A program made the position numbers and the translations under genes. A stretch of 64,000 bases of DNA from a virus. This document shows, piece by piece, positions 1-59,124 of this stretch (position 1 is its first letter; every line of letters begins with the position of its first letter). Location of the stretch: positions 16,023-80,022 of IMG/VR virus record IMGVR_UViG_3300035179_000003. One strand, given 5' to 3'. The notes under the pieces were generated by a model, which was not told the DNA's origin, made no database searches, and saw nothing but the letters and a program-made list of their open reading frames with translations.

Positions 1-1544
1 GCTTTACCACCTGCCGATGCCTCGCCTTCCAATTCTTCAATTCTTAATTCAATCGATTGACTCGTTTCTTCCATTATATTTTTAAACTCAGTTTCCGGAT
101 CCATATCCAGTTCTTGTATTGCCGTCGTTCTTGATACGACGCGCTGTGATGGTGTTCCGGAAGAAGCCTGCAGGAGCATACCTTTTCTTTGTATATCATC
201 AGCCATTTTGAATGGCGACATTTTAATATCGATTTCAGGAATATTAAAATAAATCGCCAAATGATTTTTTACCCAATCTATCAATTCATGCATACTGGTT
301 CGATGATTGATAAATCTATTTTCAACAATTCTGAGAGAAACATTGCTCCCCGACCATGATGCGCCACCCCTTATAATTTCAGGTATTACGCCCATGCCGG
401 TAATAATTCCATCTTCGGTCTGTTTTATTTCAGGAGTAGTCATTAATAATCTGGCTTCTCCGCTGAAGGTCTGAAAACCAACCGGTAACGGCATGATGGA
501 TATATGGTTAGGATCTACCTTCCATTTTCTAAGCTCTTCTTCAATTTTCTGTCTCCAACTGGTTAAATTAATAGTGGCATGGGGAGAAACATCACCTGTT
601 CCCTGTGGAAATATAATTCTCAATGGAACGATATGATCGAGCGAAATCATTTCGTTTCCCTTTTTCAGAATTTTAAGATGAAACACGTCTTTTAAAACAG
701 GCAATACCGTCGGAATCCCCCATCCACGTTCAGATGGATAAAAGTATTGCGGTCCGGGTTGTTTAAAATAAAAAACATTATCATTTTTTAATTTTAATTG
801 TTTGTTCTGTTTTACAGCGTCTAAAATTTCAATACGCAAGGAGTTGACTATATCAAGATCGCCCTTTTTAACAGCCTCTACGAGAAACGGGGGTATCTGA
901 TAATAAAAAAAATGTTCATTTGTTATATTATTATATTTAATTTCAATAAACAGAAGATCCCATAAAATAATACTTAATTTATCTGTTTCTTTAGTCTGCA
1001 TGTCGCTGATTTCAAAATCGGTTAATGATCCACAGGATGAGCATTTTCCTTTATATATATAATTTTTATATTCAAGATCAGTCTCTGATTCGACAGTATT
1101 TATAGTGTTACATTTTTTACATGTTAATAATCTCTTAAATGGAAAATGTATGGAAATAAGGCTGGATCCATATGCATGATAATCCATTCCTATTTGATGC
1201 ATGACTTTGATGAATTTTAATTTTTTCTCAAAAATATCTTTCCATTTATCAACCGTTTTATCGCCTTCGATAAATGATTTTTTTTGATCGGTAAATTTGA
1301 GCGAAGTAATGGGGTATTCGGACATTCGTGCAATACATTGATATACAAGCGGATCAGAAAGAATACTGGAGGCTATAAACCGGAACATACCTTTAATTGT
1401 TTTAGGTATGAATGTATTGGTCATATCTAGGAACGGGGAATCGTATTTAATAGACGATCGGGTGAAAGAAACTTTAGTTTCCCCACCGCCCCCTGGGACA
1501 CCACTCGGACTCAATACGTTTCCAGCTAAGCCTTCTGCTGCCAT
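1..1544 (-). CDS. Probable phage portal protein, runs off the left window edge (not in ORF track)
   Basis: Open frame from ATG 1544 (MAAEGLAGNV...) to the edge; portal-like segment GWGIPTVLPVLKD...ISLDHIVPLRII; CxxC...CxxC insertion; lies in the virion operon. Confidence 0.6.
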   Translation of the reverse strand, partial: MAAEGLAGNVLSPSGVPGGGGETKVSFTRSSIKYDSPFLDMTNTFIPKTIKGMFRFIASSILSDPLVYQCIARMSEYPITSLKFTDQKKSFIEGDKTVDKWKDIFEKKLKFIKVMHQIGMDYHAYGSSLISIHFPFKRLLTCKKCNTINTVESETDLEYKNYIYKGKCSSCGSLTDFEISDMQTKETDKLSIILWDLLFIEIKYNNITNEHFFYYQIPPFLVEAVKKGDLDIVNSLRIEILDAVKQNKQLKLKNDNVFYFKQPGPQYFYPSERGWGIPTVLPVLKDVFHLKILKKGNEMISLDHIVPLRIIFPQGTGDVSPHATINLTSWRQKIEEELRKWKVDPNHISIMPLPVGFQTFSGEARLLMTTPEIKQTEDGIITGMGVIPEIIRGGASWSGSNVSLRIVENRFINHRTSMHELIDWVKNHLAIYFNIPEIDIKMSPFKMADDIQRKGMLLQASSGTPSQRVVSRTTAIQELDMDPETEFKNIMEETSQSIELRIEELEGEASAGGK

Positions 1545-1563
1545 TATAATCCCTTACCAGACG

Positions 1564-1818
1564 CTATCTTAAACCACTTGTTAATTTTTTACGTATTTCA
1601 GAAAAGTGTTTGAAGGTTTGCTCAATATCTTTAAGATTGCGCTTAGAAAATTGCACATTATTAATAACACGCTTTAAGGTGTCTCGATTCGCTGAACCAA
1701 TCATTGTATGCAAAGGACCATTCACTTTACCGCTAGACCTGAGTATTTGAACAATCTTACTATTACTCAACGCAACCTTCTCAAGTTCACCCTTTAATGC
1801 ATTCCCAATCTTAACCAT
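1564..1818 (-). CDS. Small hypothetical virion-operon protein (contains EKVA)
   Basis: 84-aa ORF directly upstream of the portal-like gene. Confidence 0.6.
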   Translation of the reverse strand: MVKIGNALKGELEKVALSNSKIVQILRSSGKVNGPLHTMIGSANRDTLKRVINNVQFSKRNLKDIEQTFKHFSEIRKKLTSGLR

Positions 1819-1839
1819 AATTTATCTCTGCTTTGATCG

Positions 1840-3180
1840 TTATGTTAAATAAATTGAACCTGTATGAAATATAGTGGTAATTTTTTTTATTCCAAAATTT
1901 CCATCACTACAACAAACAGTTTTTCCATATGTTGAACACCCTTTAACAATATGTATTTTTCTTTTTATAAATACAAAATCACCAGGCTGTATTGAATATC
2001 TTTGTTTACGGATAGATGGCTTAAAACCCTTTCTATTCAACTGCAAAACCCTATTATTTCTATGTTTCTGCTTAAATATAATTGGAGCCACTTTTCTCTG
2101 TTCGTTTCCACCAGCTATTACAAAAGCATCGTTATAATGGCTTTTTTCTAACCTCAAAATATTTCTTTTAACAAAAGTCTCATTTCCATAAATTAACTTA
2201 CAATTTGATAAAATATTTCTGAATTTATTCCTTATTATACTCATAAATGTTGCATCTTTGTAAACCTTATTCTTTTTTAACACATCATACAACTTGTTCT
2301 TATGCAATTTCTTATGACATCTCTCATGCAACAAAGCCAAATTCTTCTCCCGGTCTATTCCACCGTTACTCCTCGATATAATGTGGTGAATATGAAAACT
2401 GTTACCTTTTGAAAACTCTTTACCGCATAACTGACATCTTCCCTGCTCCCGGAACATTAAAAAACTTCTCATGTTTTGATATTCAAACAACGATCCTTGT
2501 TGATATTGTATTCCTGCTATATCTGGATTCTCTATTTTCTGAATATCAAAATTACCTACTTCAATTACAACATTCTTAATTGGTAATAGTTTTTTTAGCT
2601 TGTTAATCAAGGTTATGTGGGTGTTGAATCTTCTCTGTGTTGAAGGTGGTAAATAACCAATAGCTGTTTTTCTATTGTTAAATCTTGGCTTTCTATACCA
2701 CAATCTACTCCTTCTACCCCTTCGATACATTCTCTTTTCTATAAGTCTCTCAGATGTCCTTTGATCCAAAAGAAGCGTTCCTGCTACTATTTCTTTTTTA
2801 TCAGTTATTGCTGAAAAACCTATATTCTTAAAACCGCTGTCTATTCCCAAAGAACAATCTTGAACCTGATTCTCACACTCAAAATTCAATTTAATAACAA
2901 ATGGATTCTGCTTTACAACATGCGCTTTTCCTCCTTCTAAAAGATGCCTTGCCTTTGTACTTGTGCATGGCATTAAAGGTTTTCCATTAATTGACAATAC
3001 AAACACAATGCTTTTAAAGCCGGGTGCTTGTTCCCGTTGATCCACTTCGAGATTGTTTAAAGTCCGTACTTTATCCTGTACACTGACTCTTTCAAGTCTG
3101 TTTAATACAGGATTTACAGAGCAAGGAACTAGTGGAGTATTCCTTGGTGTGTTCTTAAACTTTACTTTAAACTGCTGCAT
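1840..3180 (-). CDS. iscB: IscB RNA-guided endonuclease (true start possibly GTG 3006)
   Basis: PLMP motif, RuvC-I GIDSG, RRGRR bridge helix, RuvC-II IEVGNFD, HNH (HIHH..N..HERCH), RuvC-III SHYNDA. Confidence 0.92.
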   Translation of the reverse strand: MQQFKVKFKNTPRNTPLVPCSVNPVLNRLERVSVQDKVRTLNNLEVDQREQAPGFKSIVFVLSINGKPLMPCTSTKARHLLEGGKAHVVKQNPFVIKLNFECENQVQDCSLGIDSGFKNIGFSAITDKKEIVAGTLLLDQRTSERLIEKRMYRRGRRSRLWYRKPRFNNRKTAIGYLPPSTQRRFNTHITLINKLKKLLPIKNVVIEVGNFDIQKIENPDIAGIQYQQGSLFEYQNMRSFLMFREQGRCQLCGKEFSKGNSFHIHHIISRSNGGIDREKNLALLHERCHKKLHKNKLYDVLKKNKVYKDATFMSIIRNKFRNILSNCKLIYGNETFVKRNILRLEKSHYNDAFVIAGGNEQRKVAPIIFKQKHRNNRVLQLNRKGFKPSIRKQRYSIQPGDFVFIKRKIHIVKGCSTYGKTVCCSDGNFGIKKITTIFHTGSIYLT

Positions 3181-3264
3181 AGATAAACAACCTAAGCCCT
3201 CTAATCAACTCTTACGTTGAATCTCACGATTCAAGCTCCGGCCCTTGTGGCCGGAGTAGTTGAC
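3010..3264 (-). ncRNA. IscB omegaRNA scaffold; guide from the flank about 3265-3280 (GAACAGAACTTTCAGC)
   Basis: Located between the element end and the PLMP domain; 5' GTCAACTAC hairpin. Confidence 0.75.
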
Positions 3265-33987: not shown

Positions 33988-34057
33988 AACAACCCCAACC
34001 ACCCTGCAAGGTTTTCTCAAGAAATTCCTTCGCCTTGCAGGGGAGTGTTGGGTTTTT
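33988..34057 (+). terminator. Long hairpin followed by a T-tract
   Basis: CCCTGCAAGG/CCTTGCAGGG stem extended by CCAAC/GTTGG, then TTTTT. Confidence 0.55.
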
Positions 34058-55793: not shown

Positions 55794-56218
55794 AAAAAGA
55801 ATTTTGTCCGTTGTGTTGTAGATATATAGATACAATCTGTAAATATTGCGGCACGCAAGTGTGGACCGATGATGATGGTAAACTATGTTTCGATAATCCC
55901 AAAACAATGCTTATTTTTGAGGATAATGATTTTGAATCGAAATATCTTTTATTGACCCCTCCGAATAAAATTGAAGTACCGCGAAATTTATCTTTTCGTA
56001 AAAAGGTTATTATTATAATGAATATTCTTGATATGAAAATATTTACTTTATCAACCCAGATACAATTTGGGCCATATGTTTATTATCCAAGAATAGTAGA
56101 AATAAATGGTAGAATAAGATATATGGTTACAGGGTTTAATCCTGAACTTCTTCATCAGGTAACATTTAAAAAATATTCATTTTATTACGGTGTTAAAAGA
56201 GTAATAAATCTGGTATAA
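55790..56218 (+). CDS. Hypothetical Zn-ribbon protein
   Basis: CPLC...CKYC. Confidence 0.55.
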   Translation: MKKEFCPLCCRYIDTICKYCGTQVWTDDDGKLCFDNPKTMLIFEDNDFESKYLLLTPPNKIEVPRNLSFRKKVIIIMNILDMKIFTLSTQIQFGPYVYYPRIVEINGRIRYMVTGFNPELLHQVTFKKYSFYYGVKRVINLV

Positions 56219-56232
56219 TAATTATGGAAGAA

Positions 56233-56457
56233 ATAGTTACTTTTATGGAGATAGACGATTGAAGAATTATACCACCAGCGTGCCCTTAGCCGGCTAAAGT
56301 CCGGCCTAACAACTAGTACCTGGCGTGGTTTTGAAGCCACAGAAATTAGGGTTAACAAATTTCATTAATACTGTAATATTGATGAGCAAATTAATCGGCG
56401 TTACAGCGCAATCGCTTTGGCAAGCGACAATCTGTTGAAGGCTATAAAGGTAACTAT
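56233..56457 (+). ncRNA. Putative stem-bracketed RNA directly behind a promoter
   Basis: ATAGTTACTTTTATGG / CTATAAAGGTAACTAT terminal stem; no ORF of 60 aa or more. Confidence 0.45.
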
Positions 56458-56593
56458 ATTTTTATAAACAATTTATTTACAAAGAGTTATATTATTTATC
56501 TAAAAAAAATATTAAGGAACTGATTACACTCTTTGTCTAGTTGTACAAAATTTTGCCAGCTTTGAATTTATAGTTCGGCTGGCTGGAGGCACA

Positions 56594-56779
56594 ATGAACT
56601 TTATTGGATTTTTCGCGGCAGCGTTTTTCTCGTCACTTTTTATTCATTTAGTGGTCGTTCAGCCTGCATGGGGCTTGATTGCTTGGTCGGGTTTTACTGG
56701 TATAGGCTTTGTCGTTTCAATAGTCAACGCCAGCCGAAAGAAAATTAAGGAAGCTGGCAAAACTTCGTACAACAAATAA
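56594..56779 (+). CDS. Cassette 1: small two-TM membrane protein
   Basis: RBS GGAGG; stop lies inside attC1. Confidence 0.65.
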   Translation: MNFIGFFAAAFFSSLFIHLVVVQPAWGLIAWSGFTGIGFVVSIVNASRKKIKEAGKTSYNK

Positions 56780-57135: not shown

Positions 57136-57342
57136 ATGCGCGGCAAGAGATTAACAAAGTTACAACTGGAATATTTAGACAAAAATATTACTCATGGTGC
57201 ATATATTGCTTATCCAACAAATATTTTTCAATCTGACAATTATTTAAAGTGGCGAAGAGAACGCCGCGCAAACTTGTTGAAGAAAAAATTTCGTCAACCA
57301 ATACATATTAGAGGAAATTCCGCCTGTGCCTTTAAATTATAG
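57136..57342 (+). CDS. Cassette 3: small basic protein
   Basis: RBS GGAGG. Confidence 0.5.
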   Translation: MRGKRLTKLQLEYLDKNITHGAYIAYPTNIFQSDNYLKWRRERRANLLKKKFRQPIHIRGNSACAFKL

Positions 57343-57368
57343 CGCGCGCAGGAGAAAGAGAAAAAAAA

Positions 57369-57800
57369 ATGAAAACAATAAGCATACAGCAGCCTTGGGC
57401 ATGGGCCATAATTAACAAGGGGAAAGATATTGAAAATCGTGATTGGTACACAAATATTCGTGGAAAAGTATTGATCCATGCTGGCAAAAAAATAGACAAA
57501 GAAAGCTATTATTTTTTACACCATCAAATGGGATTGTTCATTCCAGAAGATAAAGAATTACAAACGGGTGGCATTATTGGAAGTGTTGAAATTGTAGATT
57601 GCGTCAGGTCAAGCACAAGCAAATGGTTTTTTGGAAAATTTGGATTTGTATTAAGAAATCCAATCGAATTACCATTTATGCCATATAGGGGACAATTAGG
57701 ATTTTTCGACGTTTCATACAAAGATGCGCGCGAGGAAGGGGAGGGCACAGGCTCCACATCCTCTAACACGCAAAGAGCAGAACAAAAAGAAGGTAGTTAA
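57369..57800 (+). CDS. ASCH-domain protein
   Basis: SIQQPWAWAI..GKDIENR.W....RG..LIHA; G.IIG.V...D; GQLGFF. Confidence 0.85.
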   Translation: MKTISIQQPWAWAIINKGKDIENRDWYTNIRGKVLIHAGKKIDKESYYFLHHQMGLFIPEDKELQTGGIIGSVEIVDCVRSSTSKWFFGKFGFVLRNPIELPFMPYRGQLGFFDVSYKDAREEGEGTGSTSSNTQRAEQKEGS

Positions 57801-57843
57801 AATATTATAGTTTTTTGCTCCGCTCTTTTGCGGGGCGTTATAC
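57761..57843 (+). repeat. attC-like site 3
   Basis: CTCTAAC..CGCAAAGAGC..GCTCTTTTGCG..GTTATAC. Confidence 0.75.
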
Positions 57844-57848
57844 GAAAT

Positions 57849-57986
57849 AAGAGGTTGCTTTTATGGTTATAGGCGGCAAACAGTACCGGGTACGGCGGGT
57901 AGGATTTGAACCCGAAGCCGATGGTTCGACTCCATCTGTGGTGGGGCACACTCCACTTGCCGCTTTATACTATAGAGGCAACCCTT
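57849..57986 (+). ncRNA. ORF-less cassette 4: stem-bracketed tRNA-like RNA
   Basis: About 28-bp terminal stem; perfect T-arm GATGG-TTCGACT-CCATC; ATTTGAA anticodon-like loop. Confidence 0.6.
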
Positions 57987-57992
57987 TAAATC

Positions 57993-58063
57993 GCACAACA
58001 AAGCAATGGTGGCGGAGGCCTAAATTTTGAGTACAAAACTTCACCATTGCTCGGACGTTGTAT
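57993..58063 (+). repeat. attC-like site 4
   Basis: GCACAAC..AGCAATGGTG..CACCATTGCT..GTTGTAT. Confidence 0.8.
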
Positions 58064-58067
58064 GTAA

Positions 58068-58279
58068 GTTTTCGCTCTTTGAATTTATAGGCAATGGCGG
58101 GGTTAGGGAACGGCAGCTTTGCCAATACGGGGGTAATTTGTGTTCAACCCGCTGCCTACATGGGAGTAACCTAACTACATTAATGTAGCGGAGTGTCTGG
58201 TCTGGGCCAGTACCAAATGATATTTGCCATGTATGGAACTAAGAACCGTCATTGCTTTTTAATATTGTGGAGCGAAAAC
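58068..58279 (+). ncRNA. ORF-less cassette 5: stem-bracketed structured RNA
   Basis: GTTTTCGCTC/GAGCGAAAAC and GCAATGGCGG/CCGTCATTGC terminal stems; internal GGCAG/CTGCC and TACATGG/CCATGTA. Confidence 0.55.
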
Positions 58280-58283
58280 CAAC

Positions 58284-58351
58284 ACACAACAGCCAAAGTA
58301 TGTTCGTTCCGCAAATTGTTTCACAACTTCATACTTTGCCACACGTTATAA
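58284..58351 (+). repeat. attC-like site 5
   Basis: ACACAAC..CAAAGTATG..CATACTTTG..GTTATAA. Confidence 0.8.
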
Positions 58352-58407
58352 GAAATAATATTTTGCGCAAAAGGTAAAGAAGCGCGCCATAAAGGTTCGG
58401 AGGAAAA

Positions 58408-58872
58408 ATGCAAAAAGAAATAAGACAAAAACCAAAATACAAACAGGTTGAAGACGGGTTTTCCGATGTCCTGGTTTATGTGACAAAAGATAACAAAGAG
58501 TTTAAAACAGAAAAAGAAGCAATGATCCACGAAGCGGATTTGGTATCGTTGGAAGATTTCAATAAAAAGTACCATCATTTTAAAGAAGGTTTTTCCGGAA
58601 GGGATTACGATGTCATTATTATTGACGAACTCACCAAAGAAAACAAAATAGAAATCGGAAGACGCTTTCGGCATATCAGTGAATCACAATTAAGGGTTGG
58701 CGTGAACTTAATATTTACCGACGATTCTGGCGACTATACGTATCAGTCGGTTGACCATCCAGAAGATTTGTTAAGAAATTTCGAAAACGAAATTGAGGAA
58801 ATTAAGAATACAAAATGTTACAGCTTACAACAAACGCTAACTGGTGCAGTAAGAAGTTGCAACTTCAGTTAG
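58408..58872 (+). CDS. Cassette 6: hypothetical protein
   Basis: RBS GGAGG; Y.TKD.KEF.TEKEA..HE motif. Confidence 0.65.
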   Translation: MQKEIRQKPKYKQVEDGFSDVLVYVTKDNKEFKTEKEAMIHEADLVSLEDFNKKYHHFKEGFSGRDYDVIIIDELTKENKIEIGRRFRHISESQLRVGVNLIFTDDSGDYTYQSVDHPEDLLRNFENEIEEIKNTKCYSLQQTLTGAVRSCNFS

Positions 58873-58886
58873 CTAATCCGTTATAA
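58824..58886 (+). repeat. attC-like site 6
   Basis: CTTACAAC..GCTAACTG..CAGTTAGC..GTTATAA. Confidence 0.8.
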
Positions 58887-58891
58887 GAAAT

Positions 58892-59023
58892 AGAAAGGGC
58901 TTTTATGGTAGTAGGCGGCTTAATTAATGAACAAAGTAGCAGTCTTGAACACCTGCCGATTTATGGCGTAAATGGTTCGAACCTCAAGATTACTCGCCGC
59001 TTTACACTATGGAGACCCTTTTT
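58892..59023 (+). ncRNA. ORF-less cassette 7: stem-bracketed tRNA-Ser-like RNA
   Basis: Terminal stem homologous to that of cassette 4; GCAG-T-CTTGAAC..CTGC, variable-arm-like GCC/GGC, GGTTCGAACC. Confidence 0.55.
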
Positions 59024-59028
59024 AAATT

Positions 59029-59124
59029 ACGCAACAAATAAAGGTTGTCATGCCACTAAGAATGGAGATTACCCATCATTATAGGAAAACGGCGGCACAG
59101 GCAACTATTTATCAAACGTTGTGC
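59029..59124 (+). repeat. attC-like site 7
   Basis: ACGCAAC..ATAAAGGTTGTC..GGCAACTATTTAT..GTTGTGC. Confidence 0.75.

Follow-up and report, generated by a model that had tools for sequence, protein, structure and literature searches.

Integron cassettes usually consist of an open reading frame (ORF) and an attC site, and their ends share only the 7-bp core. Clusters of attC sites without an integrase (CALINs) have already been described on phages (Qi et al. 2023, PMC9892861). Here, I examine an array of comparable build on an 80-kb phage contig, estimated to be 44% complete (IMG/VR record IMGVR_UViG_3300035179_000003), of which bases 16023-80022 were analysed; this stretch of 64,000 nucleotides (nt) is referred to as the window, and coordinates are those of the window unless another contig is named. 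At issue are three short cassettes on the plus strand, namely cassette 4 (57837-58056), cassette 5 (58057-58344) and cassette 7 (58880-59117), which an initial annotation had taken for mobile genes of structured non-coding RNAs (ncRNAs), mounted in a conserved terminal stem and released from a polycistronic transcript. I show that the terminal stem is a covarying helix joining the two ends of each cassette, that it is a generic cassette feature and not an ncRNA chassis, and that cassettes 4 and 7 both contain a short frame kept open; they are probably no dedicated ncRNA genes.

The array is made of co-oriented short cassettes, the spacers being imperfect palindromes bounded by ..ACAAC and GTTRTAN. 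Six such sites were found to be bounded by an inverse core (R'', RYYYAAC) and a core (R', GTTRRRY), with the cores GTTATAC, GTTGTAT, GTTATAA and GTTGTGC departing from the GTTRRRY consensus at position 5. The attC site of cassette 4 (57993..58063, plus strand; R'' GCACAAC ... R' GTTGTAT) is more stable on the bottom strand (-24.5 kcal/mol) than on the top strand (-19.0 kcal/mol); that of cassette 7 (59028..59124, plus strand; R'' TACGCAAC ... R' GTTGTGC) was likewise read from the sequence and folded. The bottom strand is the more stable one in five of the six sites, with RNA and DNA energies alike. Each cassette start complements its own inverse core (crossover G|TT), alignment columns 1-9 pairing with columns 261-269 and compensating changes falling in columns 5-7. 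A pattern search for strict attC sites returned nothing but an unrelated palindrome at 33993-34053.

No match to a tyrosine recombinase or integron integrase (PF00589) was obtained on the 80-kb, 44% complete contig, and the array is CALIN-like because no integrase adjoins it there. Upstream of the array lies an extended -10-like site, TGGTATAAT (56211..56219, plus strand), which, as read from the sequence, is a putative promoter of the array's polycistronic transcript; a near-copy is found at 60898-60938, ahead of another gene. Scanning the sequence revealed no terminator-like site within the array and no enrichment of such sites; sigma-70 promoter-like sites were not enriched either (17 versus 14.1 expected), and none stood at a cassette border. 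The GC content of the window array is 40% versus 34%, and that of a related array on a 170-kb jumbo phage (G002; L091 = G002:C1:98000-113000, approximately 640-3080, reverse strand) is 42.7% versus 24-26% in its flanks. By composition, the cassettes look foreign to each phage while resembling one another, and the arrays are GC islands.

The leader-trailer helix

Common to cassettes 4 and 7 are a 20-nt 5' bracket, CTTTTATGGTnrTAGGCGGC (57858-57877 and 58900-58919), and a 19-nt 3' bracket, GCCGCTTTAyACTATrGAG (57959-57977 and 58996-59014), each present in two copies where 0.02 would be expected by chance; the homology of the brackets, as first annotated, is thus borne out, and so is the difference between the interiors that they enclose, which are unrelated. 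The bracket pairs fold into long stems (z-score -6.2 in cassette 4 and -3.4 in cassette 7), and they are part of longer leaders and trailers. The leader of cassette 4 (57837..57877, plus strand) contains the core GTTATAC, GAAATA, a Shine-Dalgarno (SD)-like GAGG and the 5' bracket with an AUG at 57863; it pairs, in a duplex of -39.7 kcal/mol (z -8.2), with a trailer (57959..57999, plus strand) that has an anti-SD stretch and the inverse core GCACAAC as well as the 3' bracket. In cassette 7, the leader (58880..58919, plus strand; core GTTATAA, GAAATA, a G-run and the 5' bracket with an AUG at 58905) and the trailer (58996..59035, plus strand; 3' bracket and inverse core ACGCAAC) form a duplex of -33.2 kcal/mol (z -4.8).

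Pattern scans recovered relatives with the same chassis of leader and trailer around unrelated interiors: four copies in two arrays of a 44-kb viral contig (G001), and others on the 170-kb phage contig (G002), on a 32-kb contig (L036), on four metagenome contigs (L021, L024, L025 and L027) and on a contig (L094) filed under a metagenome-assembled genome (MAG) of Thermoplasmatales. Isolated phage genomes gave no match, and a search of viral contigs for related loci with the upstream 142-amino acid (aa) protein and with P0005, a diverged relative of the L027a payload described below, returned nothing.

Covariation was assessed on 12 chassis cassettes from at least six phage or metagenome contigs. 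RNAalifold recovered the terminal helix only, whose 29 pairs span the distance between crossover core and inverse core; compensating changes on both sides occur at 14 of them. As many as 93.3% of the helix cells are paired; the covariation score is 0.434 against 0.164 for shuffles (none of 500 scored as high), and it falls to 0.09-0.14 when the pairing partners are slid. Pairs 1-9 are the R'/R'' cores, as the integron crossover predicts, and the other 20 pairs come in addition to them. Columns 12-32 comprise 20 consecutive consensus pairs, equivalent to about two turns of uninterrupted double-stranded RNA. The outer part of the helix contains Watson-Crick pairs only, possible on both strands; further in, UUUUAUGG/CUAUGGAG contains four wobble pairs (U.G/G.U), each retained by 10-12 of the 12 sequences. 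With RNA energies the top strand is the more stable one in all 15 elements compared, and barely so with DNA energies. The annotation had noticed G.U pairs on the top strand, opposite to the attC bias, and had suggested selection at the RNA level; that the terminal helix is selected for pairing on the sense strand is supported by these figures.

The trailer resembles ACTATAGG, and its core (ACTATAGAGG / CACTATGGAG, 57959-57977 and 58996-59014) resembles positions -7 to +3 of a T7/SP6-type promoter. A T7-type RNA polymerase was considered on this account and set aside; TTATAGG is restricted to the array and does not serve as a promoter motif across the genome. A single-subunit RNA polymerase (PF00940) had no match in G000-G003, a result of little weight, for control genomes were likewise silent.

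The same helix surrounds protein genes, at odds with a stem particular to ORF-less cassettes. In cassette 1 it extends over 56540..56773 (plus strand) around a 61-aa membrane-type ORF (56594-56779), with a duplex of -49.3 kcal/mol (z -10.3); cassette 3 is enclosed by a helix of z -5.3; and in cassette 3b the helix spans 460 nt (57308..57770, plus strand; -49.5 kcal/mol, z -7.9) around an ORF of 143 aa with an ASCH domain match (E 1.1e-5). Leader-trailer helices likewise surround most cassettes of the G001, G002, L094, L027 and L036 arrays, whose ORFs are 58-97 aa long. Since protein genes sit inside the same helix, there is no evidence for a swappable set of RNA genes. Moreover, trailers lie inside coding sequence in cassettes 1, 3b, 4 and 7, as is common overall; an RNase III cut there would therefore remove stop codons and leave non-stop mRNAs. 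The helix is a generic feature of the cassettes, not an ncRNA chassis.

Open frames and interiors

Cassettes 4, 5 and 7 had been described as devoid of a sense-strand ORF. This holds for cassette 5, which has no through-frame, and fails for cassettes 4 and 7, which have ATG frames of 55 and 59 aa, just below a 60-aa display threshold; calls of 'ORF-less' at such a threshold can conceal frames kept open. Both mini-ORFs begin at the AUG within the 5' bracket and stop in the attC loop, that of cassette 4 (57863..58030, plus strand) after crossing the whole hairpin, that of cassette 7 at 59084 (58905..59084, plus strand). Frame 0 is free of stops in both, versus three and three stops in the other frames of cassette 4 and five and six in those of cassette 7 (41% GC). 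Among the 12 chassis cassettes, nine keep the frame open between the conserved AUG and R'', whereas 2.33 would be expected with shuffled interiors (P 8.3e-6), and the interiors of these nine contain no stop in frame 0 versus 13 and 20 in the other two.

The 5' bracket, laid out as a G-rich SD-like run followed by a spacer of 5-9 nt and an AUG, can be aligned with the SD, spacer and AUG of a clearly protein-coding cassette, whose 86-aa product has 111 relatives, down to 42% identity. In this alignment the third codon positions of the N-terminus are no less conserved than the others, and its conservation is therefore at the nucleotide level. The 86-aa family has conserved ends encoded by leader and trailer, a hypervariable middle and shuffled C-termini encoded by attC. 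The peptides of cassettes 4 and 7 are polar, not hydrophobic, and unchanged copies of both cassettes are also present in many sediment runs. Among the public runs listed for this DNA, none is an RNA run.

The claim that the payloads are structured RNAs is not supported. Cassette interiors are mutually unrelated and are not more stable than dinucleotide shuffles (z from +0.3 to -1.35), and the covariation check on homologues, which the terminal helix passes with its 14 pairs, yields no consensus structure outside it across the 12 elements (RNAalifold). Rfam, at gathering and E-value thresholds, reported no family in the region and HEARO only, elsewhere in the window. A tRNA in cassette 4 was considered and rejected: despite a T-arm, the RF00005 model scores 13.6 bits versus a gathering threshold of 29 (E 8.3 in 509 nt), and ARAGORN returned no tRNA or tmRNA. 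A Ro60 (TROVE, PF05731) partner gene had no match on the incomplete contig. Equally discarded was an 8-nt motif, ATGGTTCG, in the payloads of cassettes 4, 7 and G1b; it is too weak (roughly 0.02) and the hairpins are not alike.

Cassette 5 differs in its ends. Its helix (58057..58290, plus strand) is formed by a leader of type 2, which contains CTTTGAATTTATAG and is common to cassette 1, and by a trailer at 58247-58290; the duplex amounts to -41.5 kcal/mol (z -8.6), the stem fold has z -4.2 and the interior z +0.28. The sharing of CTTTGAATTTATAG between cassettes 1 and 5 is confirmed (56560-56573 and 58077-58090), within a 34-nt leader that is 76% identical; by itself the 14-mer is not significant, 2.2 occurrences being expected at two mismatches. 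Cassette 5 looks decayed; together with the chassis cassettes G1a, G1b and TPA1, it may be either decayed or truly non-coding.

Cassette exchange and neighbouring elements

The mobility of the cassettes, also part of the annotation, is upheld. Cassette 4 is unchanged in L025 and is followed there by a different cassette; in contigs from sediment runs, agreement with the window ends at the cores (56540-50, 57836-8 and 58055-60), and further breakpoints fall at the inner edges of leaders (57869, 58089 and 56583), with other contigs matching the cassette 5 leader up to 58089 and differing thereafter. Because of the neighbour swap in L025 and of these contig breakpoints, it follows that both cassettes and payloads are exchanged between arrays.

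Exchange extends to the 3' ends. The hairpin payload L027a (L027:761-1003, minus strand; P0003, P0004) occurs with three distinct C-terminal tails encoded by attC, of which two contain CxxC..CxxC motifs, and in the 86-aa family N- and C-terminal modules are shuffled at a QQLK junction encoded by R''. Varied tails on one hairpin indicate that modules are also swapped at R''; crossover at R' alone would not be sufficient for such tail shuffling. The L027a payload has a relative of 67% identity in which the frame is still open. As for L094, the same cassette family appears in L094:1-8000 (filed as an uncultured Thermoplasmatales MAG) directly after a run of N; this is probably phage DNA, or else a chimeric or mis-binned scaffold.

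Several structured elements accompany the array. Between the promoter-like TGGTATAAT and the first cassette, a 240-nt element (56223-56466) is closed by a stem of 17 bp (z -4.4) and possesses a leader of chassis type (GAAATAGTTACTTTTATGG), with no ORF and no attC cores. Downstream, a gene for an RlaP nucleotidyltransferase (PF10127, 59557-60333) is followed by two adjacent structured elements (60340-60593), the first being a three-way hairpin (60340-60450, z -3.7) and the second a helix of chassis type (60444-60593, z -4.3) that has no R cores. Further on (61319-61480), tandem units of about 77 nt, 81% alike over their first 32 nt, overlap a 52-aa frame and form one hairpin each (z -3.4 and -2.9). 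On the minus strand of the window, a HEARO (IscB omega-type) RNA of 113 bits overlaps an ORF for an HNH endonuclease of 446 aa at its start (1840-3264, ORF 1840-3180), and a TnpB-type transposase gene lies within the phage at 51422-52687 (phrog_506, E 4e-122).

Explanations and known systems

The explanation that I favour, and to which I would give about an even chance, is that of a leader-trailer clamp on the sense strand, probably acting at the RNA level and common to the whole cassette pool, with mini-ORFs kept translatable. Cassettes 4 and 7 would be short members of an integron-type pool of mini-genes circulating in several sediment phages, as opposed to dedicated ncRNA genes. Their brackets are the two strands of the leader-trailer helix, running from the core GTTRTAN to the inverse core ..ACAAC before attC, and the 5' bracket would serve as a translation-initiation region for a frame that stays open through the hairpin and ends within attC. 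In a polycistronic transcript the helix may clamp both ends of each cassette segment and, in the mini-cassettes, it may also hide the SD and the AUG, pointing to fold-back control of stability and translation, similar to hok tac/fbi pairing, rather than to a cut-out signal. Translating a cassette increases the mRNA level of downstream cassettes (PMC11511950); the frames might be kept open for their translation to sustain the polycistronic mRNA and the downstream cassettes, or else as fast-evolving micro-proteins. Movement would take place through attC recombination, with an integrase presumably supplied from outside the contig, and the conserved leader and trailer could double as homology for module swaps.

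A number of observations weigh against the clamp. A helix of -40 kcal/mol over the SD and the AUG should prevent initiation unless it is opened, and action in RNA is indistinguishable, from sequence alone, from action in top-strand single-stranded DNA. Three of the 12 chassis cassettes (G1a, G1b and TPA1) have no through-frame, and cassette 5 has only a 27-aa ATG frame from 58095 in place of one. Frame 0 has the best codon usage in four of nine mini-ORFs versus 21 of 24 true cassette ORFs, and the frame in which the 3' bracket and R'' are read differs among cassettes, all three being used. Finally, the peptides of cassettes 4 and 7, identical on 7 and 12 contigs respectively, have no diverged relatives and no match in Pfam or PHROG. 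The mini-frames are thus kept open yet unlike evolved proteins.

A possible alternative, to be held tentatively, is that the covarying sense-strand chassis is an RNA element read by the host RNase III or by a phage protein, thereby insulating, stabilising or gating each cassette, whatever its neighbours. With such a dedicated reader, the chassis might equally carry protein genes, mini-ORFs or, as in cassette 5, non-coding payloads.

It is rather unlikely that the helix acts in DNA, the leader-trailer repeat extending the pairing of the R boxes in the single strand, be it that the top strand ties up R'' and so enforces a bottom-strand attC, or that the attC stem is lengthened in the excised circle. 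Wherever the ORF lies, the helix adjoins the R'/R'' cores without a gap in every case, its trailers overlap coding sequence, its outer part can form on either strand, and its strand bias is the reverse of that of attC, all of which would suit such a role. Nonetheless, DNA energies hardly separate the two strands, and a DNA stem would be poorly stabilised by four nearly invariant G.T mismatches in a stretch of 10 bp; some chassis-like helices lack R cores, and the conserved SD-AUG is left unexplained.

It seems no less doubtful that the products of cassettes 4 and 7 are functional micro-proteins which evolve fast (anti-defence factors, for instance), the helix being incidental. Frames are kept open from a homologous start site; their 55-59 aa come near the 58-97 aa of the neighbouring cassette ORFs; the related 86-aa family combines conserved ends with a hypervariable middle; and the relative of the L027a payload is still open. 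Against this stand the missing codon-usage signal, the lack of relatives and of any family match, a conserved 3' part that is read in three frames, and an N-terminal conservation which includes third positions.

More improbable still is the original proposal, namely that cassettes 4, 5 and 7 are mobile ncRNA genes whose stem is an RNase III-like processing chassis freeing structured payloads. Double-stranded RNA of about 19-20 bp is long enough for RNase III, and the helix, with its covariation and its sense-strand specificity, offers such an uninterrupted stretch between internal loops. Cassette 5 and three homologues lack a through-frame, the mini-ORFs show no codon bias, cassette 4 contains a perfect T-arm, and chassis-like helices occur outside attC cassettes, at 56223-56466 and 60444-60593. 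The proposal is weakened by interiors no stabler than shuffles and without consensus structure, by the absence of an Rfam match and the subthreshold tRNA score, by a frame 0 open far above chance, and by the protein genes inside the same stem, where cleavage in trailers would produce non-stop mRNAs. Least probable of all, functionless remnants of decaying protein cassettes, with stems persisting as part of the recombination unit, would account for the early stops of cassette 5, G1a, G1b and TPA1 and for the orphan peptides, but cassettes 4 and 7 recur as identical copies, on 7 and 12 contigs respectively as well as in numerous sediment runs, and the excess of open frames together with the many compensating changes implies continuing selection.

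Turning to described systems, YrlA is a tRNA-like Y RNA bound by Ro60; cassette 4, alone in the array, resembles it in having a long terminal stem around a T-arm module, whereas its tRNA model falls below the cut-off, ARAGORN is empty, the contig shows no TROVE protein and the T-arm is absent elsewhere. RNase III processing stalks are known from rRNA operons and from T7 early mRNA sites. Like them, the cassette helix is long, interrupted and built from sequences flanking a unit in a polycistronic RNA; unlike them, it has its trailers within coding sequence. In hok-type mRNAs, which are type I toxin mRNAs, fold-back inhibition is brought about by tac/fbi pairing. The mini-cassettes share with these a covarying 5'-3' pairing which surrounds a frame some 50 codons long and masks the SD and the start codon; they depart from them in that the peptides of cassettes 4 and 7 are not hydrophobic, no minus-strand promoter-like site for an antisense RNA gene was found within cassettes 4 or 7, and the unit is inside a polycistronic array and tied to recombination cores.

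The promoter-stem-loop (PeSL) cassettes of T4-type phages (Arbiol et al. 2010, PMC2839356), in which an early promoter adjoins the boundary stem-loop, likewise have conserved boundaries between small accessory phage genes, with module swaps occurring there; by contrast, the boundaries described here have no promoter found at them and combine attC-like sites with a helix spanning the whole cassette. ORF-less integron cassettes, such as sRNA-Xcc1 and the promoter cassettes of Treponema (PMC6557892), are also short, without a called gene and set within arrays; cassettes 4 and 7, unlike these, have open frames, and neither promoter enrichment nor payload structure was found.

The array also resembles the phage CALINs (PMC9892861), with which it shares co-oriented small cassettes, imperfect palindromes with inverse-core/core sites and the lack of an integrase on the contig. 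It differs from them in that each cassette adds a leader-trailer helix of 20-45 bp with conserved sequence and sense-strand bias, in cores that follow GTTRTRN and not the strict GTTRRRY, and in that many ORFs run into attC. What stands out here is the covarying sense-strand helix that spans each cassette, along with a conserved initiation region, in a pool common to several unrelated phages. Should its action be in RNA, this helix would constitute a natural 'standard part', making mobile cassettes alike in any array, and it would bear on how polar effects are avoided in integron arrays.

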